A stretch of DNA of 16,238 nt from Promethearchaeota archaeon (GTDB lineage Archaea > Asgardarchaeota > Heimdallarchaeia > Hodarchaeales > Hodarchaeaceae), in NCBI GenBank assembly GCA_048938105.1, contig JBHLMN010000037.1, forward strand, positions 1 to 16,238. Reading direction: 5' to 3'. The notes under the pieces were generated by a model that saw only the letters and a list, made by a program, of their open reading frames with translations, ran no database searches and was not told the DNA's origin. The first letter of the stretch is position 1, and the number at the start of each line of letters is the position of its first letter. The position numbers and the translations under genes are program-made. Shown here one piece after another: positions 211-16,238 of the stretch.

Positions 211-246
211 GTTTTATTAAGATTGTTATCTCTTGGAGAGCTGACT

Positions 247-1128
247 ATGGTAGGCGACCAATTGATAAAAGACCTTCAAATACTCGGTCTAACAAAATGG
301 GAAGCTCAAGTATTTGTTGAACTTGTTAAACTTGAAACCGCTGATCCATCAACATTAGTTGAACGGTCAAAAGTTCCTCAAAGCAAAATATACCACATCA
401 TGGATCTTTTAGAAAGGAAAAACCTCATCTCGAGCCAGATTGTTGGAAAAAAACGCAAATTATACCGTGTTATTCCAGTCCAGCAAGCAATAAAGATTCT
501 CTCAGATCCTTTTACTCGCGCCGTAACGACTAGTGAAGTCACCTTGAAATCACTCTACCAGTCAGATAGGTATCAAGAAACGTCAGGCCAGGAAATAAGG
601 ACAATCCGAGGGAGCCAAGCCCTTACTCTGTTTATCAATGAGATCGTAGATAACGCACTGGAAGAAATTTTCGTCATTTTTTCTGTAAAGTGTCTCATTC
701 GACACGTACCGGCCTTTATTGCTGCTATCGAGAGAGGAGTGGACGTTAAAGTAATCATCACCACGGAGGAAAATAAAATATTGTTGCACCATCCAGAATT
801 TGGTTCGTTAAAAGATCTTATCACCGATGTGTGCATAGTAAACTTGGATTTATTTTCAAATCTTGCAAAGGAGTTTTCCTCAAGTCAATCTCCAGCAGCA
901 ACAATTTTCCAGAAAATAACACGCCATATCATGCCTGTTTTTGCAATTAGACCAGATACAATTCTTGTTGATAGCCAGTTAGACAGGAAAGAATCATTGA
1001 TCATTATCAAAACTTCAAATGACCTTCATGAGAATCTCGGTATCCACTTGAAGGCAAAAGAATTCATTGACTTTCAGAGTAATCTGATCCGTATCATTTG
1101 GGAACTGTGGAGTAGCTTTGGAGTTTAA
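247..1128 (+). CDS. TrmB-family transcriptional regulator (N-terminal winged HTH plus effector-binding domain)
   Basis: LQILGLTKWEAQVFVELV...SKVPQSKIYHIMDLLERKNLI...LYRVIP is the TrmB wHTH pattern; IRTIRG...AIERGVDVKVI is the C-terminal domain pattern. ATG 247 is preferred over TTG 223 because GGAGAG precedes it. Confidence 0.9.
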   Translation: MVGDQLIKDLQILGLTKWEAQVFVELVKLETADPSTLVERSKVPQSKIYHIMDLLERKNLISSQIVGKKRKLYRVIPVQQAIKILSDPFTRAVTTSEVTLKSLYQSDRYQETSGQEIRTIRGSQALTLFINEIVDNALEEIFVIFSVKCLIRHVPAFIAAIERGVDVKVIITTEENKILLHHPEFGSLKDLITDVCIVNLDLFSNLAKEFSSSQSPAATIFQKITRHIMPVFAIRPDTILVDSQLDRKESLIIIKTSNDLHENLGIHLKAKEFIDFQSNLIRIIWELWSSFGV

Positions 1129-1273: not shown

Positions 1274-1301
1274 TTTATATTAAACGTTGGTTATATGATC
1301 A
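1274..1301 (+). repeat. dif/Xer-like site J1: TTTATATTAAA-CGTTGG-TTATATGATCA
   Basis: Intergenic AACGTTGG core; AACGTTGGTTATAT is 14/14 identical to site J2. Confidence 0.6.
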
Positions 1302-1664
1302 AACATTACTAATAAATATTGACAATTATCATTTTGATAATTACATAGAATTATCTGATATTTCCACTAAGCTTCATATACGTTATAAACCAGCAGATTG
1401 CTCCTAAAACTACTGAAGCTACACAAACTTGCGGTGAGAAAGACTCGCGTAATGAAATCCAAATATTTCTCTGTATACAAATAAGTTTTCAAAAATAAAC
1501 AAATTTTACCACAGAACTTATAGGAAAAAATCTTATAAGAATAAAAGATCATCTTATTGTTATCCTCGTGTCAAAGAGGCAATTATATCATATATTCCAA
1601 AGTCTGCATTGATATAAGAAATTGTAAGAAAATTCAGTGTTAAACATATGGCTAGAGATCAATT

Positions 1665-2357
1665 ATGTCAAATAAACTAATATTTATTTTGCTAAAAATA
1701 TTTACAGTAGCTGCAGTACTTTTTTTCATTAATGTAATATTGATTTTATTCTTTCCTGAAGTTTATAAACATGTAAACTTCTCGATTACTCTTATATTAT
1801 TTAATATCTCTCTTGTAGTTGATAAGGCTGCTCAACCATTCCTTGTTTACGGTCAAAAAGATAAAAAAGCTAAAAAAGAGCTCTATAAAGCTCTCTCAAT
1901 GTTCCTTCTTCTCTTTATGATTCCATTTATTGTTTCTCTTCCTTATCTTGAATATTCCTTAATTCAAAAAATGATGCTCCCTCTAGAGTTAACTTGGATG
2001 TTTTGGATGTTGGGTACCCTAATGATTATAATTGGAGGACTTATTTTATGTATAAGTCGGATTATACTTGGTAGAGAAAGTTCAATAGTAATAGGGATTG
2101 AAACAGATCATAAACTAATCACCAAAGGACCTTATCACATCATTCGTCATCCTATTTATACTGGAGCATCATTTCTTTTCCTTGGTTATTCTTTTTCATT
2201 TTCTAGTCTGATTTGTTCGATTGTTATCTTGTTAATTCTTATGTTGTGGTTAGATAAAAGAATAACATTAGAAGAAAAATTGTTGATTCAAACCTTTGGA
2301 AAAGAATATCTAAACTATATGAAATATACAAAAAGACTGATCCCTTTTATTTATTAA
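1665..2357 (+). CDS. Isoprenylcysteine carboxyl methyltransferase (ICMT/Ste14)/PEMT-family membrane methyltransferase
   Basis: Multiple TM helices; motif HKLITKGPYHIIRHPIYTG and C-terminal RITLEEKLL..FGKEY..Y...TKRLIPFIY. Confidence 0.9.
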   Translation: MSNKLIFILLKIFTVAAVLFFINVILILFFPEVYKHVNFSITLILFNISLVVDKAAQPFLVYGQKDKKAKKELYKALSMFLLLFMIPFIVSLPYLEYSLIQKMMLPLELTWMFWMLGTLMIIIGGLILCISRIILGRESSIVIGIETDHKLITKGPYHIIRHPIYTGASFLFLGYSFSFSSLICSIVILLILMLWLDKRITLEEKLLIQTFGKEYLNYMKYTKRLIPFIY

Positions 2358-2776
2358 TCTTCAAGTATATTTTCCTTAGAATTAAGAATTTTATATTTTT
2401 TCTCTAATCAATGAAAAAAGAATTAGTTAAAGTCCATTAAACACCAATCTAAGTCATAGAATTCCTTTCATAAAAAACAGCATAATAAACTTAAAGTTTT
2501 AAAAATTAGTTTAAAATATGCAGGAAATCGCATTATATAAAGATAAAGCTAAGAATCAGAAAATCTTTATTCGTGGTCTTCAGCTGACTTGATATACTCT
2601 ATGAAATTTTTTTGTTCCTTACTCTCTCACCTTTGTTGCATCACCAAGGTTTAAACTTTCTAAAAATGTTATAACGGTGCCATGTGTAGTTAATTCTATC
2701 AAAAAAATAGAAGCCCACCCAATATCTGAAAAAAGGCTTAGAGTTACTATGATTAACGAAAATTGAGATAAACTTT

Positions 2777-4462
2777 CTAAAAATATTCACGTTCATTAAT
2801 TTTCTTAATACATATAACATACATAATACAAATTAATGACAAATATAGACTAATGATAACAATATCTTCCAAAATAATTGTTTCTTCATAAAGTATCCTG
2901 ATTCTATCAATCCAGTAAAAAGGGGTCAGAGTAGAGAGGAACTTAATTTGATCAATAGTATATGCCAGCATAAATACCAATAGAATGCCAAAATAAGTTA
3001 TTCCTGAAATTGTAACTGCTTTTTCAGGATTTTTTATAAATATAGACAATAGTACAATTAAAAAGGTCATTGTAATTACTACTAGAAATGTAAGGAAGAT
3101 TCCAATTCCCAAAATAGGAATATACTTGAAACCATTTCCATATAACATGATTCCTACAATATATGCAAGATAATTCAATAGAAAAACGGTGAAAATTTCT
3201 AAACTTATCGCAGCTAACCTTTCTTTTAATATTTTAGAGGTAGGCTTTGAATGTGCAAATAATAAATCTAGAGTGTTTGATTTCTGATCTCGAATAATTA
3301 TTTTTGACCCTAAAAACATTGAAATTATTCCTGAATAAAGGAAATACTCTCCGAAGCCTTCAGTGGCAATGTATCCAATGAATGAGTTTGCAACACCATG
3401 ATTTCGTAAAATTGCGCTCATTAAGATATCTATTGAACTGTAGGTCTTTGATAGACCAACCCATGCTTCATCTCCAGGATACATTGAAGGTGTAACAAGA
3501 CCTGAAATTGTCATGATCAACGCAAATAGGTAAATGAATGCTTTATCTGATTGCAATTGCTCAATAAAACTCGGGAATCGGTGTTGTAATCTTCTAACAA
3601 AAAAGAAAAGGAATGGAATTCCTTTTTCTTTGGATTTTTTTTCGTTAATCTTATGAGAAAAGTGAGGAATAAGATCTTTCCGATCATTAATTACAAGAAT
3701 CATTCCAAATATTAAGATAGAAAAAATAAGAAGATAAAAAGCCTTATCCCAAACGACCTGTCCAATAGAAGGTTTTAGAATTGTAGAGGCACTATCATAA
3801 TAATAGAAAACTTGAAAATATTTCAGGAATTCTAATTCTTCGGAAAATAATACAATCAGACCAATTATGAATGATCCTACAATTATAGTACCAATATAAC
3901 GTTTTGCACGACCAGAATCTAAGAATAAAACAGCAAATAGGACACTGAGTAGTCCTATAAAAACAAGCAGTGTAAATAATTGAAAACACGATGCAGATAA
4001 TAATTCAATGGAAATATTTTGGCCAATTACAAGGGATAAAAGATAAATAAGAAGGAATAAATAAACAATCGATCCAAAAGACATTGATAAAACAGCTAAA
4101 ATTTTTTCCAGTAAGATTTTTCTCCTAGTTATCGGATTGGACATTAATAAATCGATTGTATTATCATCATTATCCTTAGAAAAGACGTTTGTACCCACGA
4201 GTGCGGGGATTGCTGTATATAAAATTCCAATATAGCTAAATAGAAACAATGCCAACCAGAAACGATATTCACCTCCCTCTCCATAAACGATCCCATAAAT
4301 CGCCTCCCAGTCTCCCATATCCTCTAAACCAGTGATCTGTTCGACAGCTGCTTCATCACCTGGATAAATCATAATCATTAATACTATAAATACCGTTGAA
4401 AAGAATAAAAAAGCAAGCATTAATCCTTTTTCTTGTTTGAGGCTATCTAGAAAAACCTTCAT
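2777..4462 (-). CDS. ABC-2 type exporter permease with two tandem permease domains
   Basis: About 12 TM segments; duplicated motifs YPGDEA, DNTIDLLMSNPITRRKILLEK / SNTLDLLFAHSKPTSKILKER, FYYYD / FYWID. ATG directly follows the ATPase stop (TAAATG). Confidence 0.88.
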   Translation of the reverse strand: MKVFLDSLKQEKGLMLAFLFFSTVFIVLMIMIYPGDEAAVEQITGLEDMGDWEAIYGIVYGEGGEYRFWLALFLFSYIGILYTAIPALVGTNVFSKDNDDNTIDLLMSNPITRRKILLEKILAVLSMSFGSIVYLFLLIYLLSLVIGQNISIELLSASCFQLFTLLVFIGLLSVLFAVLFLDSGRAKRYIGTIIVGSFIIGLIVLFSEELEFLKYFQVFYYYDSASTILKPSIGQVVWDKAFYLLIFSILIFGMILVINDRKDLIPHFSHKINEKKSKEKGIPFLFFFVRRLQHRFPSFIEQLQSDKAFIYLFALIMTISGLVTPSMYPGDEAWVGLSKTYSSIDILMSAILRNHGVANSFIGYIATEGFGEYFLYSGIISMFLGSKIIIRDQKSNTLDLLFAHSKPTSKILKERLAAISLEIFTVFLLNYLAYIVGIMLYGNGFKYIPILGIGIFLTFLVVITMTFLIVLLSIFIKNPEKAVTISGITYFGILLVFMLAYTIDQIKFLSTLTPFYWIDRIRILYEETIILEDIVIISLYLSLICIMYVICIKKINEREYF

Positions 4463-5371
4463 TTATTTTCCCCCAGATCTATTCTTAAGATCATAAAAAT
4501 GCATAAAATAGTCTTCAAGAGACGGTTCCGGTGCATAAAATCTTTCTATGGGGAATCTGGAAATTTTTTCAAGAAACGTATGAAAATCGCCCTTTACTAT
4601 CGAAATTAGCTCATTTTTATCTTGAGATAATACCGTTATATTGGGATCTTGGAGTAATGAGGGATTAACCTCGGATTTAAAATCAATATGAACTTTCTGT
4701 ACTACCTGTTGGTCAAGTTTTGAAACATCCATGGTTGAAATAATTTCACCCTCTCGAATTATAGACACTATATTAGCAATTTTCTGAATTTCTCCAAGAA
4801 AATGACTAGAAATAAAAAATGTTTTTCCGTTTTCTACTTCTTCAGTTATTAAATCATATAAAACCTGTTGCATTAAAGGATCTAATCCACTCGAAGGCTC
4901 ATCAAAAATATAAAAATCAGGATCATGCATAAACGCTTGAACTATAGCTACTTTTTGCCTATTCCCCCTGCTTAACGTTTTGGTGTTTTTCGTAATATCT
5001 AAATCAAATAATTTCACCATTTCTTCCATTCGTGAAGATGGCCGATTTGATCTGAGAGAAGTAAAATAATCAAGCATTTGTTTGACAGTTAAATGTCCAT
5101 ATAAAGCCACATCACCGGGAATATATCCAATTCTATCATGAATTTGAACATTCGATCGATCAACAGGAATTCCGAATAATTTTACTTCCCCACTTGATGG
5201 CTTAAGAATACTGAGAATAATTCTAATGGTGGTGGTTTTTCCCGCTCCATTTGGCCCTAAAAATCCGTAAACAGTTCCTGTTTCAACAGTAATATTGATA
5301 TTATTTACCGCAAGGAGTTTTCCATAATATTTATAGAGATTCTTAATTTCAAGAACTACTTGTTCAGTCAT
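4463..5371 (-). CDS. ABC-2 type exporter ATP-binding protein
   Basis: Walker A GPNGAGKTT, signature LSRGNRQK, Walker B/D-loop YIFDEPSSGLDP, H-loop SSH, C-terminal PSLEDYFM. Confidence 0.96.
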   Translation of the reverse strand: MTEQVVLEIKNLYKYYGKLLAVNNINITVETGTVYGFLGPNGAGKTTTIRIILSILKPSSGEVKLFGIPVDRSNVQIHDRIGYIPGDVALYGHLTVKQMLDYFTSLRSNRPSSRMEEMVKLFDLDITKNTKTLSRGNRQKVAIVQAFMHDPDFYIFDEPSSGLDPLMQQVLYDLITEEVENGKTFFISSHFLGEIQKIANIVSIIREGEIISTMDVSKLDQQVVQKVHIDFKSEVNPSLLQDPNITVLSQDKNELISIVKGDFHTFLEKISRFPIERFYAPEPSLEDYFMHFYDLKNRSGGK

Positions 5372-5411
5372 TTAAACCAACTCTTGAGTACTTTTAAGCA
5401 CTTATCAATAT

Positions 5412-5423
5412 CTACTGGAGTAG
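5412..5423. promoter_or_regulatory. Second CTAC-N4-GTAG palindrome upstream of the ABC operon
   Basis: CTACTGGAGTAG matches CTACCTGAGTAG (196-207) at 10/12; both lie 29-41 bp upstream of minus-strand ABC ATPase starts. Confidence 0.45.
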
Positions 5424-5728
5424 TTTTCTTGAAAACATATAAGGTTTATGTTCTTGACTATTGAGAACATTTAAAACTGGTTATCTTCACATTTGAGAAC
5501 ATTTTAACTAATATAGATCTAAAATTCCAATTAAAAAGGGACTTAAGAAGATTCGACTATTGCTTCAACTTTTGGCCAGTTGTAACTAAATAATGCTTCT
5601 ATAGAATATTTTATAACGAAAATTAATGTCAAGAGAATTAATAAAATCATAAGTATAACAAAAATATCCAGTACAGGCATGTTCTATCCATACGATTTAT
5701 CAATGAAAAAACGCATATCGATACATAC

Positions 5729-5808
5729 AATGTCATTTATCAAAGGTTAAACGACATTCAGACTATATAAAGAAAATATAAAGACTTTCGTGAGCATAAC
5801 GTTGGTTA
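5729..5808 (+). repeat. 80-bp direct repeat, copy 1 (module right end, type b)
   Basis: 75/80 identical, ungapped, to 13670-13749; contains AATGTC-N18-GACATT and TATATAAA; ends in site J2. Confidence 0.95.
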
Positions 5809-5816
5809 TATTCAAA
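5789..5816 (+). repeat. dif/Xer-like site J2: CGTGAGCATAA-CGTTGG-TTATATTCAAA
   Basis: 11-6-11 layout with ATAA/TTAT inner inverted repeat; arms match E. coli dif arms (GGTGCGCATAA / TTATGTTAAAT) at 9/11 and 8/11. Confidence 0.7.
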
Positions 5817-6155
5817 AATGACTTCATTCTAAAATCAAAAACCTGTATAATCTATAATTTTACCATGTATGAACTACTTATTACGTAAAATCTTACCAAA
5901 GAAATGCATTATTCTGTGTACGAAAAGTTGCTGTTGATGTTTGTTGTTAAAACTTGTTTTCATTTGATGATGATGTCGCTTTAATGTACCTTCTCTCTTG
6001 TTTTTTCTTATCATATAGCTAGATAATTACCTTTTTAAGGACTAAAGCGAACTAGAATGAATGTTCAATGGTATAAAATGGAAAAATGGTCATCAAGAGT
6101 ATTGCGGAAGTTCGTCTTATTAAAAAGATTCAGTAGAAGGATGTAGGTTATCTTA

Positions 6156-7331
6156 ATGAATGGAGGGTTAATTCAAATTTTGAAGGCCAAACGAACTATT
6201 ATTATAGGTGTTCTCATTCTTATTATTATTGTATGGGGATTTCTCTCTTCAATTGTGATTAGTCTTCAGGTGCCCTTTGCTTTATACCTTGAATTTTCAG
6301 AGAATCCGTGGCAACCAATTAGCTCTGAGACTTATCCTGAAACAGGTGTTAAAGCTATTGATTTTGTTGATTCATATCATGGTTGGATCGCAGGTGAAAA
6401 CGGAATGATTATGGCTACTACAGACGGGGGGAAATCTTGGAAGGAACAACAATCAGGAATTAACTCTAGTATTACAGTTATTGACTTCTTTAATACTGTT
6501 ATCGGGGTAGCCATAAGTGAATATGATGTTCTCATTACGTACAATGGAGGTCTAACATGGACTGTACTGCAAGAGCTTCTCTATGAGCATCCATCTTTTG
6601 GGCTGCAAAGAGCACATTTATGGGATATAGTTTTAAGCGATGAACATACGGCCTGGGTTCTCGGAACAATGGGAACTTTTTTTCGAGTTGATATCTACAA
6701 TCAAAATTGGACTTGGGTTTCAAAAATTTCCCTCTACCTTCATTATTTAGCAATGGTGAATAACACTCATGGTTGGGCAACAGGGGGATTTAGTGCGATT
6801 GTTAGAACTATAGATGGGTGGCAAACATATGAAATTCAAGATGTAGGAGTTTTACAAAACTTTTATGGGATCTTCTTCTGGGATGTGCACAAAGGTTGGG
6901 TGGTGGGTTCTGATCATACGATTCTAGCCACAACTGATGGCGGGCAACACTGGCGACTTCAATACACTTACCGTCCATTTCTTGCAGAAGATGAGGTTGC
7001 ATTACTTGACATTTTCTTTATTACAGAGTTACAGGGTTGGGCTGTCGGTGATGGTGGTATCCATTATACCAAGGATGGCGGAAAATCGTGGTATAATCTG
7101 GGAGAAGAGACATGGGGGCCTTCCAGAATTGCTTTTGCTAATGAAACTCATGGTTGGGCAGTCTGGTCTCGCAAAGAACGCAGTTATTTCACCTCAGTTG
7201 GAGGTGTACCATCGATTGACGAGAATCTGCTAAATCTTGTAGCAACAATCTTTATATTCATTGGTATCTTCATTCCAGTCATCTTAACTATCACTTTGAT
7301 GCTCTTTCAACAAAAAAAAGCCTTACGATGA
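6156..7331 (+). CDS. Membrane-anchored YCF48-like / BNR (Asp-box) beta-propeller protein
   Basis: Repeats TTDGGKSW, TYNGGLTW, TIDGWQTY, TTDGGQHW, TKDGGKSW with GW(I/A/V)xG strands; N-terminal signal/TM segment and C-terminal TM followed by KK. Confidence 0.88.
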   Translation: MNGGLIQILKAKRTIIIGVLILIIIVWGFLSSIVISLQVPFALYLEFSENPWQPISSETYPETGVKAIDFVDSYHGWIAGENGMIMATTDGGKSWKEQQSGINSSITVIDFFNTVIGVAISEYDVLITYNGGLTWTVLQELLYEHPSFGLQRAHLWDIVLSDEHTAWVLGTMGTFFRVDIYNQNWTWVSKISLYLHYLAMVNNTHGWATGGFSAIVRTIDGWQTYEIQDVGVLQNFYGIFFWDVHKGWVVGSDHTILATTDGGQHWRLQYTYRPFLAEDEVALLDIFFITELQGWAVGDGGIHYTKDGGKSWYNLGEETWGPSRIAFANETHGWAVWSRKERSYFTSVGGVPSIDENLLNLVATIFIFIGIFIPVILTITLMLFQQKKALR

Positions 7332-7440
7332 TAGTAGTATGTTTTTCTCGACCGATTTCTCCTTGTTTTCCTTGGTTTTGTGCGCTGGGCCTTTTCCCCT
7401 GTTTTCTCTTTTCTTTTTTGACCTGTCTTAATCATGTTTA

Positions 7441-7468
7441 ATGGCGTATAACGTTGGTCAGATACATT
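7441..7468 (+). repeat. dif/Xer-like site J3: ATGGCGTATAA-CGTTGG-TCAGATACATT
   Basis: AACGTTGGTCAGATACATT is 18/19 identical to site J4; lies between convergent genes. Confidence 0.65.
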
Positions 7469-7507
7469 AATGTATAATTCTCTCAATTTAGATTTAGATA
7501 GTGAATT

Positions 7508-10500
7508 CTATTTTGTGCTTTGGATATATGGTTTATTTTTTTCCTGATATTTTTCCCATTTTTTGCGTTCTGAACGCAATTTAAAGAGGTCTACATCTTT
7601 ATAGATAATGCTTTCCTCTTTTTTTGGGATAGTTCGTTCAATACGCTCCTTTTCAGGAGTGTATATTAGGGAATCACCGTATTCCGCAATGTTTGCGAAG
7701 AAACAGTAAGCATAAATTGATCTACGAGCGTCAAAGTGTGCTGCTTTGAAATCAGCTGTGACAGGAGTGAAAGCTGGGTTAAAGATTAAATCTACTGGCG
7801 GTTCAAAGTTTTTCAATTCTACCCTTAGATCCATATCGAGAAAGTCTCTGCAAATGACGATTGCAATCCTTCCAAACTCTGTGTTGCAGACGATGGTTTT
7901 TTGTGGGACAGTTCCCACATCTATTCCCTCTTTGAATCGTTTTCCCTTATAATGTAAAGAAGCTGGGATGTGTTTTTCTTGTTCCCAAAGGATTCCATTA
8001 GTATTTATAACTAAGCTAATATTTCTTTTTGTATTTTGATCATGAAAAGAGCCTGGAATTATGTACATATCGTATGCTTTAGCAAGATTTGATATGTCTT
8101 CTAGTAGTTGATTGTAATTGAGATCGATGGTCAGTTCTGGGAAGAGTAAGATATTGACTCCTTTTGAGAAAGCGATTTCTATCATGTTTTTAACCTTCGA
8201 TCGTACGATTTCAATCTTATCCTTCTGAATACCGAAAAAACCTGGGGTTTTTTCGTCGTATAAATCGCTTAGGATATCTCCTGTTTTTGATACGCCTATT
8301 TGAGCGATAGCAACTCTACACTCCCTTCTCTGGATCCTGGGGAACTCTTTGAGTAAGTCTCTATAGACTAGTTCATATTTCTTTTTTAGCAGCTTTTCCT
8401 CTGCTGCTCTCCTTACTTCTTCTGTGAATTGTTGTACCTCACGATAATCTGGTGATAAGCTGGTTTCTATGGGACTGGTAGGAGTAACTATCCCTATAGT
8501 GCTTTTAGAGATGGAGGGTTCTTTAATAGTGTTTAAGGCAGAAACCAGTATTTTCTCTTCCTTTTGCACCATATCTAGGCGTTCTAAGACCTCAATCTCC
8601 TTACTACTGTAACCAGCTTTGTTGAAGAGTTCTGCTGCAGATTTTAAATACCTAGATACGATTCCTAACAGCTTTTGTTTTTTATCAAGCCTTATTTCCG
8701 TGTCTGTTTGGATTAAGTGCCAAACTGCATCGAAATAGGTTGACGTTGCTAAAGCCCATTCAGCTCCACTTTCAAATCCCCCCTTCTGATATGAAGATGC
8801 TGCTTTTCTAAGTATCATCTTTATTTTTGGGTATAACTGGGCTTTATTTTGTATTTCAGATGACTCGTCAAACTTGTAGCCATATTCCAGTGCTTGGCAG
8901 AAAGCTGAGTTACCTGAGGCCAGTAACTTTAATTTACTGTCGGTGAAGAGTTTGCTGGCTTTTGAAAATTGGGTTGCCGCTTCTGCGAACCTGTCGGGAT
9001 CCTCATATTGTTCTGCGAGATCCATGCTTTCCCACGCTCTACAGAGGTAGTAACCCGCTTCAAGTTCCCCTCGCTCCTGCTTCGTTTTAATTAAAGTGAA
9101 AACCTCTCTGAATTGAGAAGCTGCAGAGCCGAATTTTTCTGCAGCTGCGAGAAGCTTTCCCTGTTTTTCTAGAATTCTTGCCCTTTCAATAGTAGCTCTG
9201 GCGGAACAATAGAGTATTCTTACATTAGCTACTTTTTCAAGGTTATCGAGTCGTATTCTTTCCCTTTTATCTGTAGACTGCTTGGAAGCTTTTTTCAGCG
9301 TTTTTATGGCATTGAAGAAGCTTTTTCTGGTCGTTTCATATCTCTCTATGGCTTTTTCATGTCTTTCGTTCTTACTGAGTTGTTCTGCTTCCTCTTGTAA
9401 AGCCCAAGAAATATAATAGGGTGCTTCATATTTGTAGCTAGGAAGTTCTTCAAGAATCTCACATCCCTTATTATAGGTTTTTTTAGCTTTAAGATGGTTT
9501 TCCTTTTTGTGATAGGCTTTTGCTCTCTGGATTAGGCTCCATGCTTGTGTGTACTCTATTTTTTCTTTAACTCTGTCTTTTAGGGGTTCATATTCGATAT
9601 TTTTCAATGACTCTGTGTAAGCTTCTTGAGCTCTTTCATAATGTTCTGCAGAAACGATGTGATTCCCCAATCGATCATCAAGGTGCGCGATGTATTCGTG
9701 AGCTGCAGCTGCGTGGGAATGATACCCTCTTTCATGGCATTCTTTGACCACGTTTTGGAATGTTTCCCTTGCATTCATTAGCGATTTGGTTTCCTCGGTC
9801 GTGATACCAAGTTCTTCGTAGAGGAGCCCTACTCGCATTTGAGCAGCAATAATACCAGTGCGAGACTCAATGGAATATGTAACGTACTTTTTAGCAGCAT
9901 CTATAGCCATTGATAACATTTTAATTCTTTCTTCTTTGTTATTAGCGATGTCTGCAAGAGTTTTGTAAGCTCTATAGAGAGAGGAGGAGCCGTGAGTCCT
10001 AGACCATCCCCCTTCGTACTTTTCTGCAATATTTTCTGCCTGTTTCGCGTATTGAAGCATCTTCTTAGAATATTCGTCCCGTTCATCCTTTGTGGTCGCG
10101 ATAGTTGCTAATTGCGAGTAAGACCATGTCAATGCTTGATGTATCCAAACCGAAAATGGTAAAAAAGAAAAAATCTTTAAGCACTCTTTCGCGTATTCTA
10201 TTGCCTTTTCAGCATAAGATTTCCTTTGGGCTGGGGTGAAAACACTCCTTTGAGCAAAGTACATATGAGTAAATGCAGGGTAATAGTTCGAATAGAAAGA
10301 CCAGATACTATATAAACCTGAAAATATTTTTCCTAGCTTAACAATTTCGTCAAGGTCATCTGTTACCCTCTTCAGGAAGTAATTGAGTCTACCCGAAATT
10401 GAGATAGCCCAAGAAATGTAAAATATTAGCTCAATTATTAGAGATTTATCTTTTGTTTTCCTAATGAAAGCCAAAGCTTTTTCCAGTGACTGTATCCCTT

Positions 10501-11302
10501 TGTCAACAAATTCCCTCTGTTCCCTTTCAACTTCAGAGAATTGATATCCAAGGACAAAATACATAAGACCACAGCCATAGTAGATTATTCCGAGAATTCT
10601 AGGGTCTTCACAGTTTGCTAAAATCCTTAAAGTTTCATTATGCTTTAAAAGGAGTTTCTCAATTTCTTTTCTCCATCGTTCATCCCCTCTAAAAGGCTTA
10701 ATACACCATTCAAAACCCAAAAGCCACCCATCAGCAAATAGTGATTCAGCAAGAGACTGAATATTTCCTGTCTCCTTTGAAAGCTTCCAAGCTTTGTCTG
10801 AAAAATCTCTACCTTCGTGAGAATACTTCTCAATCTCCTCTTGGGTGCTACAATAAGTTACTCTGTACAAAGAAGCCATTCCTATTCGACTCATAATTCT
10901 TGCAATACTCTCTTGATTCTCCTCCTTGGAATAGAGCTCACTAGATTCTATGAAAAGTTTACAAGATTTACCAAACGCCTCTTTTGATTTCATAATCGAA
11001 TTCATAATAAACCCGCTTATGTATAACGCTTCAGCTTCACATTCCAATTTCTCAGAGTTATTTCCAGTCTGCTCAAAGAAATCTGCAGCTTTTTTGTAAG
11101 CTTTGATAGCTTGTTTGTTTTTTGTTACATATTCCTCTGCATGTTTCATTGTCCTCGCTGCCTGCGCATAAGCATATCCCTGCTTCTTACAAGTCACAGC
11201 AGCTTTTTTCATCATTTTTTTATTTAAATAAGACCGTAATGCTTGTTTGTACAGTTTTACAGCCTTCACCCAGTTATAATCCTTCTCCTCATCCCCAGCC
11301 AT
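7508..11302 (-). CDS. Large TPR/alpha-solenoid protein with C-terminal carbon-nitrogen hydrolase (nitrilase) domain
   Basis: About 930 aa of Ala/Tyr/Lys/Glu-rich helical repeats, then RVAIAQ...FPEL (Glu), QEKHIP (Lys), VICRDF (Cys) triad. Start uncertain: ATG 11302 or GTG 11314. Confidence 0.85.
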   Translation of the reverse strand: MAGDEEKDYNWVKAVKLYKQALRSYLNKKMMKKAAVTCKKQGYAYAQAARTMKHAEEYVTKNKQAIKAYKKAADFFEQTGNNSEKLECEAEALYISGFIMNSIMKSKEAFGKSCKLFIESSELYSKEENQESIARIMSRIGMASLYRVTYCSTQEEIEKYSHEGRDFSDKAWKLSKETGNIQSLAESLFADGWLLGFEWCIKPFRGDERWRKEIEKLLLKHNETLRILANCEDPRILGIIYYGCGLMYFVLGYQFSEVEREQREFVDKGIQSLEKALAFIRKTKDKSLIIELIFYISWAISISGRLNYFLKRVTDDLDEIVKLGKIFSGLYSIWSFYSNYYPAFTHMYFAQRSVFTPAQRKSYAEKAIEYAKECLKIFSFLPFSVWIHQALTWSYSQLATIATTKDERDEYSKKMLQYAKQAENIAEKYEGGWSRTHGSSSLYRAYKTLADIANNKEERIKMLSMAIDAAKKYVTYSIESRTGIIAAQMRVGLLYEELGITTEETKSLMNARETFQNVVKECHERGYHSHAAAAHEYIAHLDDRLGNHIVSAEHYERAQEAYTESLKNIEYEPLKDRVKEKIEYTQAWSLIQRAKAYHKKENHLKAKKTYNKGCEILEELPSYKYEAPYYISWALQEEAEQLSKNERHEKAIERYETTRKSFFNAIKTLKKASKQSTDKRERIRLDNLEKVANVRILYCSARATIERARILEKQGKLLAAAEKFGSAASQFREVFTLIKTKQERGELEAGYYLCRAWESMDLAEQYEDPDRFAEAATQFSKASKLFTDSKLKLLASGNSAFCQALEYGYKFDESSEIQNKAQLYPKIKMILRKAASSYQKGGFESGAEWALATSTYFDAVWHLIQTDTEIRLDKKQKLLGIVSRYLKSAAELFNKAGYSSKEIEVLERLDMVQKEEKILVSALNTIKEPSISKSTIGIVTPTSPIETSLSPDYREVQQFTEEVRRAAEEKLLKKKYELVYRDLLKEFPRIQRRECRVAIAQIGVSKTGDILSDLYDEKTPGFFGIQKDKIEIVRSKVKNMIEIAFSKGVNILLFPELTIDLNYNQLLEDISNLAKAYDMYIIPGSFHDQNTKRNISLVINTNGILWEQEKHIPASLHYKGKRFKEGIDVGTVPQKTIVCNTEFGRIAIVICRDFLDMDLRVELKNFEPPVDLIFNPAFTPVTADFKAAHFDARRSIYAYCFFANIAEYGDSLIYTPEKERIERTIPKKEESIIYKDVDLFKLRSERKKWEKYQEKNKPYIQSTK

Positions 11303-11722
11303 TTTTAACAACACTCGTTCTCTTTCATTTTTATTATTTTGCGTTTTTATCTCCCTACTATGAAATTTTTAAGAGAACTTACAAATAATTAGGTAATCTC
11401 TCTTTAATCAACTATATATATTCTCCTCATGAGTTTAAATATCTTTCAGACCATTTCTAATCTAAATATCAGTGAATTGTCATATTTTGTTTTATTTTGA
11501 TTATATTTTTTGATTTTGATTCTCTTTATTCTTGATAAGTACATTTAATGCCATTTTTTCATCAAATTGTGTTGATAGAAACTCCTACTCCAAAGAAAAT
11601 GAAATCATTAATTTCTTGATCACTATCTTTAATACAGAATGTTTACTGTTTCTTCAAATCTCCATTTCATATCAAAAACATGGTTGTGGAACATTATTAG
11701 AATTTCTTTAATTCTTTTGTTA

Positions 11723-11754
11723 AAAATTAAAGAATAGTTCTGAAGAAACGTTGG
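11723..11754 (+). repeat. 32-bp direct repeat, copy 1 (module right end, type d)
   Basis: AAAATTAAAGAATAGTTCTGAAGAAACGTTGG is 31/32 identical to 13616-13647; identity stops right after CGTTGG. Confidence 0.93.
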
Positions 11755-11765
11755 TCAAATACATT
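11738..11765 (+). repeat. dif/Xer-like site J4: TTCTGAAGAAA-CGTTGG-TCAAATACATT
   Basis: Left arm shared with J5, right arm shared with J3. Confidence 0.65.
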
Positions 11766-12016
11766 TAGGTTATTACAGAAAAAAAATCTTTGAATTTAAT
11801 TATAAAAATAAAGAAAAGCTTAATACAATTATTTGTGTAAATGCGTTCTTTCATAATTTATCTGAACAAGAAGCTTTAAAATGAAGGTCGTTGACCTTTT
11901 TGGTATATTTGATATGTGGGGAGGGACAACTGAAACTGACGAGACACAGGGAATAGGGAGTATTTGGTAGGGGTCTTCTCATCAGTCTTTCTCTCAGTTA
12001 CTATCTCTTGATGGGC

Positions 12017-12024
12017 TTTATATA
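12017..12024 (+). promoter_or_regulatory. Archaeal TATA box TTTATATA
   Basis: Matches the TTTAWATA consensus, about 37 bp upstream of ATG 12061. Confidence 0.45.
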
Positions 12025-12060
12025 CTTGTTAAGAAAAAAGGTTAAACTACTAAAATAAGG

Positions 12061-12285
12061 ATGATCTTTGTAAGTGAAATTATCATCGGATTTTTTTATC
12101 TTAAAGAAGAATTCTGGAATAAATTCTTAATAGAACTCAAAAAGAAACAAGAAAGATGGAATAATGAAGTCTTAGAGAAAGAAGTATTGGTAATATTAGA
12201 TCCTTATTTTATAAAGAATAAAAATGTAATAGAAGGTCATATACTTTCCCATAAATGTAATTCAGATAAGCATTTAATGCCCTAA
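12061..12285 (+). CDS. Small hypothetical protein or gene fragment (74 aa)
   Basis: ATG start downstream of a TATA box; protein-like K/E-rich composition; no recognised family. Confidence 0.35.
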   Translation: MIFVSEIIIGFFYLKEEFWNKFLIELKKKQERWNNEVLEKEVLVILDPYFIKNKNVIEGHILSHKCNSDKHLMP

Positions 12286-12353
12286 CCTAAATTCTTATTT
12301 AAATTCAGTTTATCATTTCACTGGGAATTTATATGAATAAACGTTTTAGTAAA

Positions 12354-12515
12354 ATGAAAAAAGTTATTCTGTTTGTGATTATAGTAACAACATCATTTCT
12401 ACTTTCAGGTTGTACAACTCCAGAAAAGGATACCTATATCTTCCCTTTTACTTCTCCAGAAGAACAGGAAAGAAAATTTGAAATAAAAGAGGAATTTTGG
12501 AAGGATAATTTATGA
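12354..12515 (+). CDS. Small putative lipoprotein, possibly truncated
   Basis: MKKVILFVIIVTTSFLLSG-C: basic n-region, hydrophobic h-region, lipobox LSGC. Stop overlaps the next start (ATGA). Alternative start at 12333. Confidence 0.55.
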   Translation: MKKVILFVIIVTTSFLLSGCTTPEKDTYIFPFTSPEEQERKFEIKEEFWKDNL

Positions 12516-13453
12516 AGTTTGGAGTTTATATTAGAGCAGGAACAACTTATTCAGGTATGTTGGAGTTAGCAAAACAGGCTGAAAAATTAGACTATTTTGG
12601 AGTTTTTTTAAATGATCACGTTCATGGGTTTGCTAATAAGGGTAAGGAACCTTATCTTGAAGCTTGGACAGCAATGACCGGGATAGGTGTCCAAACAAAG
12701 AAAATCCGTTTGGGACATAGCGTATTATTCAACTCATTAAGGAATCCTGCCTTTCTTGCAAAATCAATAGCAACATTAGATCAAATGACAAATGGACGAT
12801 ATGAATTGTTAATAGGAGCAGGATGGAATAAACCAGAATATGAAGGATATGATCTAATGGAAAAAGGACGTGGAATGCCTTCAGCGAAAGAACGGGTTGA
12901 TCGTTTTGAAGAAGCACTGCAAATTTTACGAGGAATGTTACACAATGAAACTTTTTCTTATGAAGGTAAGTATTGGAAATTAAATAATGCAATTAATATT
13001 CCTCAACCAATCCAAAATCCATTTAGAATATCAGTTGGAGCAGATAAGCCACGAATGATAAAAATTACTGCAAAATATGCTGATGGTTTCAATATTCCAA
13101 GAAATTTAAAATTACTAAAAGAAAAAATTGAATTATTAGAACCAGAATTAGAAAAAAACAATAAACGATTGAGTGATTTCTTCATTTCTGGTTTCTCGGC
13201 TATTCACATTGCAAAAAATAATGAAGAATATGACATGATAATTAAAGCCCTGGTAACGAAAGGAAAAAAGCCTAAAGAGGAACTTAAGCAGTATGGATTT
13301 ATTGGAACTCCAGAAATTCTTGTTAATAAGCTTAGACAAGCAACAGACTTAGGAGTAAAAATGATGGTTTCAGATCTGAGACCTATGAATAATGTTTCTG
13401 AAATGAAGGATAAATTAGTTTCATTTAAGGATGAAGTTATTTCAAATTTGTAA
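12512..13453 (+). CDS. LLM-class (luciferase-like) oxidoreductase, probably F420-dependent
   Basis: MKFGV...AEKLDYFGVFLNDH, EAWTAMTGIGVQTKKIRLG, RNPAFLAKSIATLDQMTNGRYELLIGAGW, PQPIQ, AKYADGFN, IGTPE. Confidence 0.93.
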   Translation: MKFGVYIRAGTTYSGMLELAKQAEKLDYFGVFLNDHVHGFANKGKEPYLEAWTAMTGIGVQTKKIRLGHSVLFNSLRNPAFLAKSIATLDQMTNGRYELLIGAGWNKPEYEGYDLMEKGRGMPSAKERVDRFEEALQILRGMLHNETFSYEGKYWKLNNAINIPQPIQNPFRISVGADKPRMIKITAKYADGFNIPRNLKLLKEKIELLEPELEKNNKRLSDFFISGFSAIHIAKNNEEYDMIIKALVTKGKKPKEELKQYGFIGTPEILVNKLRQATDLGVKMMVSDLRPMNNVSEMKDKLVSFKDEVISNL

Positions 13454-13615
13454 AGAAGGTTATATATGTAATTTCTTTTATTTAAATACTATACTAGGTC
13501 TAAACTTCAATCCAGAGGAGAATTTGTTGTCCAGTCTTCGTTCAGCACACCACTATTTTCATACATTGGTGATTCTTTCAACCATATATGTTTCTATGTA
13601 TGTTGTCTTTGAACC

Positions 13616-13647
13616 AAAATTAAAGAACAGTTCTGAAGAAACGTTGG
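13616..13647 (+). repeat. 32-bp direct repeat, copy 2 (type d)
   Basis: 31/32 identical to 11723-11754. Confidence 0.93.
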
Positions 13648-13658
13648 ATACTAGACAA
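13631..13658 (+). repeat. dif/Xer-like site J5: TTCTGAAGAAA-CGTTGG-ATACTAGACAA
   Basis: Exact AACGTTGG core; left arm identical to J4. Confidence 0.6.
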
Positions 13659-13669
13659 TTCTTACGGAA

Positions 13670-13749
13670 AATGTCATATAACAAAGATTAAACGACATTC
13701 AGACTATATAAAGAAAATATAAAGATTTTCGTGAGCATAACGTTTGTTA
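13670..13749 (+). repeat. 80-bp direct repeat, copy 2 (type b)
   Basis: 75/80 identical to 5729-5808. Confidence 0.95.
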
Positions 13750-13757
13750 GTGGAACA
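13730..13757 (+). repeat. dif/Xer-like site J6: CGTGAGCATAA-CGTTTG-TTAGTGGAACA
   Basis: Left arm identical to J2; spacer has one mismatch. Confidence 0.6.
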
Positions 13758-13813
13758 AATGTTGTATATTAGGAAAAGTATATATCATAAAATTCAAATT
13801 ATATAAGAAATAT
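13756..13813 (+). repeat. Degenerate direct repeat, copy 1 (module left end, type e)
   Basis: CAAATGTTG...ATATATCATAAAATTCAAAT...AAGAAATAT versus 14567-14621; central block 19/20 identical. Confidence 0.75.
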
Positions 13814-13863
13814 ACGTTCATCCTTTCTAAATAGTCAGCTAAATTGTTTTGGAGGCAAAATAA

Positions 13864-14337
13864 GTGAATAGGGGCGAAGAATTCCAAGTAGGTGATCCAC
13901 GCTCCCTTACTCTTCTCAAACTGATATGGGGAATTTGGACTGTACTGACTGGAATCATGGCTTTATTTATGATCATGTTCATTTTTATTGGGATTACTTA
14001 CTTACCAAGATTTCTTCACTCACCTACTAACGGAGGAGAGTCATACTTTGTATTTGGGGGATTAGTCGATGTAGGTTTATGGGTTCTTTTTGGGGGTAAT
14101 ATTTACATCACATTTGGATTAAATAGATTGCATTATTTTAGATGGAAACTTCTAATAATTGAATCAGGTCTAATAGGGATAGTGATGGGATTTGTGAGTT
14201 TAAATGTGATATTAGACATCAGAAATAATCTACAGAATCATCCGATGTCTATACTTGTAGCTCTAGTTGGGATAGGTTTTCCTCTGGTTTTATTATACCT
14301 AGCCTTTAATGTCCGAGATAAATTTAGTAAAACCTAG
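13864..14337 (+). CDS. Hypothetical 4-TM membrane protein
   Basis: GTG start preceded by GGAGG; four hydrophobic helices; no recognised family. Confidence 0.8.
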   Translation: MNRGEEFQVGDPRSLTLLKLIWGIWTVLTGIMALFMIMFIFIGITYLPRFLHSPTNGGESYFVFGGLVDVGLWVLFGGNIYITFGLNRLHYFRWKLLIIESGLIGIVMGFVSLNVILDIRNNLQNHPMSILVALVGIGFPLVLLYLAFNVRDKFSKT

Positions 14338-14559
14338 GTTTACCAACGAGATGAAGTGTAGGTTAAGTATTTCTCTTGTCCCCAGTTACCTTACGAGGTG
14401 TATGTATATACTGCGGTATATACACTCCGAGATGCTTTTAGGGCTGGGGAGGAGTTAGATTACCCTTTTGCAACAGGAGGAAAAATAGATATGGTATCCG
14501 CATTCTCTAGCTTAGTATTCAAGGCATTCAAAGAAATTATATACCAGAGTATAAAAAAA

Positions 14560-14621
14560 TGTTATTCAAATGTTGGTTAAAAAAAGGATATATGATAAAA
14601 TTCAAATAAAACAAGAAATAT
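14560..14621 (+). repeat. Site J7 (TGTTATTCAAA-TGTTGG-TTAAAAAAAGG) and degenerate repeat type e, copy 2
   Basis: Spacer is one mismatch from CGTTGG; downstream sequence repeats 13756-13813. Confidence 0.6.
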
Positions 14622-14873
14622 TAATGGTATATAACGCAAGTAGTACACGCGATCCTCATCTTATTTCTAAAATCTTAATTTTTGGGATTATTCAATATAA
14701 TATTTTCATAAGTCCATAGTTCAATATCGTATTAAAAAATAATTCAAATCTATAGCTATTTACAGTATTGGTTCCAAATTTTGTTCTATTTAAACAATCC
14801 ATCCTATTGAATCTTCGGAACCATTCATTAGATTCAGTGTTAACTTGCAAAACTGTTATATTTGCTTGATTAA

Positions 14874-16238
14874 TCACATTTTATTATTCTCATCCTTTGG
14901 CTGAGACTTCGATTTTCGACCTCTTAAACGAGGAGAAAGTCGTATTTTATTTATTCTTCCATAAGCTTGTTTCCAAAGTTTTTGAATCTGATGAAGTTCA
15001 GGTATTTTAGATATAATCTGTGGATCTTTTGAGAGAGCGTCAACAGTATCAGCCACAAGCAGTAATTCGACATCTTTAACTTCCCCTGTTACTTTCTCTC
15101 TCTCATGTTCTTCTGTGAGTGAGACTAATTGGCGTTTTTTTCGATTGAGGTCATTGAATTCCTCAATATAACGATTTTTCGTTCGTCTGTATGCTGCTTC
15201 GGAAATTTCTCCCTTTTCATAGGCATCTAAAAGCACGTTTAATGTTTCTTGTATTAAAATAATTTGGTACTCTATGTACTCGCCTCTCGACTCCTCCTGT
15301 GCAAGTAACGTTTGGTATCTTTCTTCCAACAGATAGAGTTCCTCTTTTAAGGGAAAACTTAATCGTCGAAAATCACTTGATCGAATAATTTTTTCGGTAC
15401 GATCTTTAATTAGTTTTTCAAGCTCTGCTTCAATGGCTAGTTTTTGGGCTTTAATTTCCTCCAATTCGCTTAGCTCCTCCACAACTTCGGTTTTAGTAGA
15501 AAGTGGTCTGATAATTAATCCTTGAAGTGTTCCTGTGAGTAAGATCACAATAAGTGAAGAATAGAGGAGGAGTTCTGCAAGTGGATGGTTTAATGGCTCT
15601 AAGTTGACGTATGCGAATAATGCCAAAATTGCAGTGGTTAAACCCTTAAATCCAGCGATTCCAACAAATAACCGTTCTTTATTGGAGAAAAATTCTGCTG
15701 TTTTCTTCTGAAGCTCCAGAGGTAAGGTTACTACAAAGACAGCTATAATCCTACTGATAATTACAATCAAACTTATGAGTATAGCAATGAAAAAATAGCT
15801 AGGAAGAATGTCAATACTTAAAAGAACACCAATAAAAATAAAAGCAACAATTTCAAATAGAAACGTGATATCATCCCAGAAATCATACAAATGAGTGCGA
15901 GAAAAAAACGTTTCAAAACCAATAAAACTAGGATTACGAATAATTATCCCACTAACAATAGCTGCAATTGCAGAGGAGATTTGGAGTGGTTCTGAAAGAA
16001 CAAATATCAAGAAAACTGCACTCAGTGTTATAAAGGAGATTTCACTTTTTTTCTCTACAATACTTATAAATCGAACAGCTCCCCAGCCGATAAGGATGCC
16101 AATTAAGATTCCACCGATGATTGCCCAGATACCAAGGATGATAAGGTTGAAAGAAAACTGAACCTGCCCTTTTCCCTCAATTAATTGAGGAACAAAAATT
16201 ATTACGACAAGAAGAATCGCAATTACATCATTAAAAGC
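14874..16238 (-). CDS. Cation:proton antiporter, CPA1/NhaP type, with long helical C-terminal domain (5' end beyond window)
   Basis: Frame is open from 16238: AFNDVIAILLV... (ND motif of ESxxND), later IAGFKGLTTAILAL and LTGTLQGLIIRPL. The track start at 16010 is not the true start. Confidence 0.9.
   Translation of the reverse strand, partial: AFNDVIAILLVVIIFVPQLIEGKGQVQFSFNLIILGIWAIIGGILIGILIGWGAVRFISIVEKKSEISFITLSAVFLIFVLSEPLQISSAIAAIVSGIIIRNPSFIGFETFFSRTHLYDFWDDITFLFEIVAFIFIGVLLSIDILPSYFFIAILISLIVIISRIIAVFVVTLPLELQKKTAEFFSNKERLFVGIAGFKGLTTAILALFAYVNLEPLNHPLAELLLYSSLIVILLTGTLQGLIIRPLSTKTEVVEELSELEEIKAQKLAIEAELEKLIKDRTEKIIRSSDFRRLSFPLKEELYLLEERYQTLLAQEESRGEYIEYQIILIQETLNVLLDAYEKGEISEAAYRRTKNRYIEEFNDLNRKKRQLVSLTEEHEREKVTGEVKDVELLLVADTVDALSKDPQIISKIPELHQIQKLWKQAYGRINKIRLSPRLRGRKSKSQPKDENNKM

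Follow-up and report, generated by a model that had tools for sequence, protein, structure and literature searches.

What places unrelated genes one after another behind the same short sequence in the chromosome of an Asgard archaeon? The question is raised by a stretch of 16,238 nucleotides from a Promethearchaeota archaeon of the order Hodarchaeales (here the window, which is the whole of the 16.2-kb contig C3), in which the 8-mer AACGTTGG recurs between genes. Taken together, the results support, with a probability of roughly 70%, a model in which the window belongs to a chromosomal array of self-contained gene modules that are joined at directly repeated 28-bp core sites of a tyrosine recombinase and reshuffled within and between genomes. 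Positions are window coordinates unless a contig is named; the host genome, a 5.85-Mb assembly with a guanine-cytosine (GC) content of 35% that is marked as archaeal by its TFIIB and TrmB genes, is called G000, and the other G numbers denote genomes of the same genus.

The 8-mer AACGTTGG stands at 1283, 5798, 7450, 11747 and 13640, on the + strand and between genes in every case. Shuffling gave a mean of 0.24 copies, and none of 200 shuffles reached five, in agreement with an earlier reading made from the letters alone (the sequence-only reading) that had put the expectation well below one. The same reading had described the intervening cargo as unrelated, and a Pfam search agrees with its listing: TrmB is followed by ICMT/PEMT with an ABC-2 permease and an ABC ATPase, BNR/YCF48, TPR with CN-hydrolase, a luciferase-like monooxygenase, a gene-free stretch of 99 nucleotides (nt), a protein of 157 amino acids (aa) and a Na/H exchanger.

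Alignment on the spacer revealed a 28-bp site, in which 11-nt imperfect inverted arms surround the asymmetric 6-nt spacer CGTTGG. The arms that flank CGTTGG have the consensus ATGTCGTATAA / TTATACGACAT and are both copies of one consensus; the best copy of the genome (C53:230098-230125) has 0+2 arm mismatches to it, bearing out the proposal of a dif-like 11-6-11 architecture. The inner TAA-N6-TTA is the most conserved part, with AA at -2/-1 and TA at +2/+3 in about 30 of 36 sites. This motif is a hallmark of archaeal dif sites (PMC11840125), and the 11-6-11 design has been described (PMC2958812). Among 21 genomes of the genus, 18 combine arms of the same type with other spacers, and the controls gave values near 0. 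The arms of the second site of the window (J2) had been said to match those of Escherichia coli dif at 17 of 22 positions; the arithmetic is correct against what we take to be the dif sequence, but the J2 arms are atypical of the site family.

Sites were then counted across the genome with a 24-nt site model, using the reversed genome as the null. There were 48 matches versus 16 in the null at 16 bits or more, and 29 versus 5 at 18 bits or more. Real sites number about 36-48 in G000 and lie in co-oriented intergenic arrays on C3 (6 sites), C56 (8), C53 (5), C61 (3), C52 (3) and C34 (3), a clustering for which the sequence-only reading had suggested that the genome be scanned. The 8-mer alone is not enriched (137 observed vs ~123 expected), and a genome-wide signal motif is rejected on this count. 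Most arrays are near contig ends, and it was probably the repeats that interrupted the assembly there. In the closed genome G009, six sites form a co-oriented array, and environmental contigs of 33-35% GC carry co-oriented site pairs 1.4-2.4 kb apart. Among the 36 strongest sites of G000, 35 are intergenic, with neighbouring genes in convergent, divergent and tandem orientations. One environmental contig (L077:1393) also has an inverted site 150 nt from a co-oriented pair, an arrangement that would permit inversion, not excision.

Evidence for exchange came from the sequences on either side of the spacer. Comparison of the 630 pairs formed by 36 strong sites identified 35 that share the left flank only, 20 that share the right flank only, and none that share both. 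The two flanks thus assort independently, and the sites are therefore not a dispersed repeat, which would show both flanks together. A complete module gives the same picture. Module 3 of the window recurs in a sister species (G018:C307) at 87% identity, with the same core on both sides and different neighbours: on the left a repeat element, B-left, replaces the flank family found at J3, on the right the neighbour is unrelated, and the spacer is where homology switches at either end. Synteny breakpoints at CGTTGG, which the sequence-only reading had named as a way to check its proposal, are thus present at both ends of one module. Dozens of short matches in relatives begin or end within a few nt of cores, and the TPR, PKD and GNAT modules of C56 each recur singly in other genomes, ending beside sites.

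The individual junctions of the window (Table 1) fit this pattern to different degrees. J1 is confirmed as a site by G006:C215, which aligns with its right flank starting exactly at AACGTTGG while the left flank is unrelated. The right-flank family of J2 is present at at least six other G000 sites whose left flanks are unrelated, and the left-flank family of J3 is found three more times, in the C56 array. J4 and J5 have a repeat of at least 32 nt in common (B-left), copies of which terminate at the core in at least six genomes. J6 and J2 share an 87-nt left repeat (A-left) at 91% identity, which identifies J6 as a real site; its variant spacer is also found at C11:158603. At least 10 genomes of the genus carry A-left, in copies that stop at the core. 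J7, the other near-variant that had been put forward, fared less well: its site-model score of 12.2 bits lies below the 15.6-25.3 bits of J1-J6, and homology with G018:C268 breaks at 14571 with no matching core following in G018. Between J5 and J6 the proposed empty module is indeed a unit of 99 nt without a gene, consisting mostly of A-left copy 2.

Table 1. Sites, left elements, modules and end genes of the window
Feature	Coordinates	Strand	Description
J1	1274..1301	+	spacer 1285-1290; 15.6 bits
J2	5789..5816	+	spacer 5800-5805; 25.3 bits; A-left arm and commonest right-flank family
J3	7441..7468	+	spacer 7452-7457; 22.9 bits; left arm good
J4	11738..11765	+	spacer 11749-11754; 23.4 bits; B-left arm; end of module common to G018
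J5	13631..13658	+	spacer 13642-13647; 19.5 bits; B-left arm
J6	13730..13757	+	variant spacer CGTTTG 13741-13746; 18.3 bits; A-left arm
J7 (doubtful or decayed)	14560..14587	+	spacer TGTTGG 14571-14576; 12.2 bits
A-left copy 1	5722..5799	+	inner two-armed site 5730-5757, spacer CAAAGG; TATA-like boxes
A-left copy 2	13663..13740	+	inner two-armed site 13671-13698, spacer CAAAGA; 1+1 mismatches to arm consensus
Module 1	1291..5799		ICMT/PEMT-like 1665-2357 (+), ABC-2 permease 2777-4462 (-), ABC ATPase 4463-5371 (-); GC 0.30
Module 2	5806..7451	+	BNR/YCF48-like protein, gene 6156-7331; GC 0.37
Module 3	7458..11748	-	TPR + carbon-nitrogen hydrolase protein, gene 7508-11314
Module 4	11755..13641	+	luciferase-like monooxygenase, gene 12512-13453; GC 0.31
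Module 6	13747..14570	+	membrane protein, 157 aa, gene 13864-14337; four hydrophobic segments
TrmB-family regulator gene	223..1128	+	Pfam; itself within a module (G014:C130 homologue between co-oriented sites)
Na/H exchanger gene	14874..16238	-	extends beyond contig

The two inner sites of the A-left copies account for two of the nine two-armed sites of the genome, where the null gives one, and some A-left copies in relatives begin at the inner spacer. The inner site may therefore also be recombinogenic and represent a second site class. In B-left, a perfect short palindrome, AGAAC-A-GTTCT, lies directly before the degenerate left arm (11735-11745 and 13628-13638) and could be a candidate binding site for an accessory protein.

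Modules carry zero to three genes, in either direction and with their own intergenic regions, and GC content steps from one module to the next (0.30, 0.37, 0.31). The luciferase-like monooxygenase gene is 96-98% identical in G011 and G018. The genes at the two ends, trmB on one side and nhaP on the other, between which the sequence-only reading had suggested a comparison across related genomes, are not fixed flanks. In G014, trmB lies between co-oriented sites. At the other end an exact overlap of 77 nt (window 16162-16238 = C11:161694-161770, in reverse orientation) joins C3 to C11, and the next site beyond the window, C11:158603, is co-oriented with the C3 array; the array therefore extends past the window.

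These observations can be accommodated by a simple recombination scheme. The asymmetric spacer CGTTGG would give each site its direction, and recombination between sites with the same spacer would exchange their left and right surroundings. Between direct repeats, a module would be excised as a circle with one site, and the reverse reaction would insert that circle at any other site. Over repeated rounds, modules would pile up in arrays and be rearranged, both inside one genome and from one genome of the genus to another. We infer the circular intermediates from this scheme.

Several observations weigh against the model. Some homology ends at gene ends and not at cores, as for the luciferase-like monooxygenase in G011, trmB in G014 and module 3 in G006 and G020. 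In many sites only one arm is good, or the arms are degenerate, as in A-left and B-left, and half-site counts within the window alone are not above those of shuffles. The presence in G000 of a Xer-like recombinase beside an array site provides a competitor to XerA as the enzyme. Finally, sites of the arm type are not syntenic between species, so that their equation with the chromosomal dif is unproven. Because of this, and because about 36-48 copies are present in arrays, as against the single conserved copy by which a dif serves dimer resolution on each replicon, the array sites are dif-like and not the dif itself. Two isolated near-palindromic sites, C14:250384-250411 and C14:86371-86398, have the genus-wide arm type with unique spacers and are candidates for the chromosomal dif; conserved synteny between them and their counterparts in the genus was not found. 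A search of G000 for other spacer classes with fixed short inner arms returned coding-like noise only.

Which enzyme would act on these sites? G000 has three tyrosine recombinase genes. None is in the window, and the sequence-only reading had proposed an enzyme acting in trans; a Xer-like gene does, however, adjoin the C56 array of the same genome. The recombinase encoded on C14 (C14:173967-174788) passes the NCBIfam XerA equivalog cut-off (283 vs 220 bits), and 19 of 20 genus genomes have a counterpart of roughly 27% identity. The Xer-like gene, P0001 (C56:201270-202136), encodes a paralogue 27% identical to XerA. It is preceded by a ribbon-helix-helix (RHH) partner gene that starts 70 nt after the last C56 array site, with P0001 itself about 530 nt after that site. 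A third tyrosine recombinase gene, C45:377-844, is interrupted by an in-frame TAG and lies on a contig of 5.9 kb. Serine recombinases number four in the genome, none of them near an array.

The alternative that survives best, while still unlikely, is that P0001 and its RHH partner are a dedicated, element-encoded system that does the work, with the gene-only modules being non-autonomous passengers mobilised in trans. The order of site, RHH gene (excisionase-like) and integrase resembles the end of an integrative element. P0001 combines a SAM-like domain with a catalytic domain that has the catalytic residues, and its closest solved structures are archaeal XerA proteins. Both genes lie on a 13-kb segment (C56:200736-213862) that only G000 has, with a CGTTGG site at each end. 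No other genome of the genus is as large as G000 or has as many sites, and in G009 an RHH and integrase pair lies 2.9 kb from a double site. Against this, no CGTTGG site lies beside the P0001 homologues of G012 (70% identity), G002, G008, G017 and G005, near which arm-type sites occur only at background rate. The presence of a homologue does not follow site abundance either: the site-rich G018, G011, G019 and G016 are without a close one, whereas the site-poor G002, G017 and G005 have one. A pattern scan of species genomes for close relatives of P0001 found none. No empty site was found for the 13-kb segment, the flanks of which are never adjacent in relatives. Since P0001 homologues lack adjacent sites and site abundance does not track them, the housekeeping XerA acting in trans is ranked above P0001 and is in our estimation the most likely enzyme, at about even odds. 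The 13-kb segment also holds an HNH nuclease, a Ras-like GTPase protein, a STAND NTPase and a DUF6602 protein, and resembles a defence-type island with its own recombinase.

It is considerably less probable that the arrays are scars of larger integrative elements, such as plasmids or viruses, that once inserted in tandem into a dif-like site and have since decayed, the individual modules never having been mobile by themselves. Elements integrated in tandem at a single att site would yield the same pattern of repeated cores, and this explanation could account for the homology that ends at gene boundaries and for module 1, whose ICMT gene and ABC pair sit on separate contigs in relatives. However, in the window the Pfam search found no genes for replication, capsids or conjugation, and A-left had no match on viral contigs. 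Furthermore, two species have module 3 with a core at each end, a 99-nt unit without a gene lies between two cores, and 55 site pairs have one flank only in common. That the motif is a transcription signal (a promoter or start-site element, or a terminator), or that it forms the terminus of a transposon or dispersed repeat flanked by a 6-bp target duplication, is very unlikely: A-left and B-left have TATA-like boxes about 15-20 nt before the core and a same-strand gene follows A-left in four of five copies, but neighbouring genes in every combination of directions rule out a general function as promoter or terminator, the 8-mer count of the whole genome is at expectation, the decoupling of the flanks rejects a dispersed repeat or miniature inverted-repeat transposable element, the Pfam search found no transposase in the modules, and no Rfam family matched the sites.

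The arrangement most resembles three known systems, and is distinct from each. Integrons and clusters of attC sites lacking integron integrases (CALINs), including archaeal ones (Ghaly et al. 2022, PMC9668308), likewise are rows of co-oriented units that can be exchanged, breaking at a short conserved core, and hold accessory cargo, and in both cases a recombinase is absent beside most arrays. Integrons, however, have IntI and attC hairpins, whereas here there are double-strand-type 28-bp core sites and neither of the two. The left elements showed no attC-like hairpin on either strand beyond shuffles (z -1.7 to +0.1), and the genome has no IntI (TIGR02249 score 64 bits vs a cut-off of 265); together with the lack of an Rfam match, this rejects an attC integron, in line with the sequence-only reading. 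The description of the locus as an integron-like gene-cassette array is consequently right in part: co-oriented modules are exchangeable at a core, but with zero to three genes on both strands and their own intergenic regions they are not integron-type cassettes, which are mostly single promoterless open reading frames in one orientation.

In the pdif modules of Acinetobacter, accessory genes are located between 11-6-11 Xer-type sites without a recombinase of their own, and rearrangements take place between identical or near-identical spacers (PMC13141974; PMC6449649). The array shares with them module bounds formed by Xer-type sites, exchange at matching spacers and no recombinase within modules. 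It differs in that pdif sites alternate, giving C and D modules, whereas all sites within an array here are direct repeats; the co-orientation agrees with the earlier view of the locus as distinct from pdif. In addition, most pdif modules are carried by Rep_3 plasmids, and their recombinase is a XerC/XerD heterodimer with distinct binding arms, whereas here a chromosomal array with one dominant spacer class is found in an archaeon with a single XerA equivalog and one arm consensus. Integrative mobile elements exploiting Xer (IMEX), such as CTX, TLC and VGJ in Vibrio, stack at dif (PMC4246890, PMC5357621). They too lack an integrase, exploit host Xer (as the array would if XerA is its enzyme) and build tandem dif-type arrays in which degenerate arms are common. 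IMEX are, however, phages or islands at a single chromosomal dif, in contrast to the dozens of sites, several arrays and small gene-only modules described here. Aloposons, which are tRNA-targeting giant-gene elements, are unrelated.

Further features of the cargo were noted. The C-terminal CN-hydrolase part of the 1268-aa protein of module 3 (7508-8384, - strand) has more than 30 matches of about 70% identity in the genus, with several to a genome; these form a large multicopy gene family whose members are often near sites. Just inside module 4 and separate from the site flanks, an unexplained 74-nt element (11810-11883) recurs at 85-94% identity in G011, G018, G003 and at C14:367622 of G000. 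The 157-aa membrane protein of module 6 had no Pfam match.

No published description of archaeal Xer-site module arrays was found in the searchable literature. Bacterial integrons and the Xer-site modules of Acinetobacter plasmids are known examples of site-specific gene capture, and Hodarchaeales are among the closest archaeal relatives of eukaryotes. It is possible, though we hold this only tentatively, that Hodarchaeales run an integron analogue on XerA, their housekeeping enzyme of chromosome resolution, with compatibility classes defined by the 6-nt spacer and with modules captured, stacked and exchanged between species, as a major route of accessory-gene gain behind their unusually large genomes. 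If so, Asgard archaea would have a distinct way of capturing genes by site-specific recombination, one that is chromosomal, direct-repeat and dif-like, and the lineage nearest eukaryotes would have a concrete means of acquiring genes horizontally and of enlarging its genomes.

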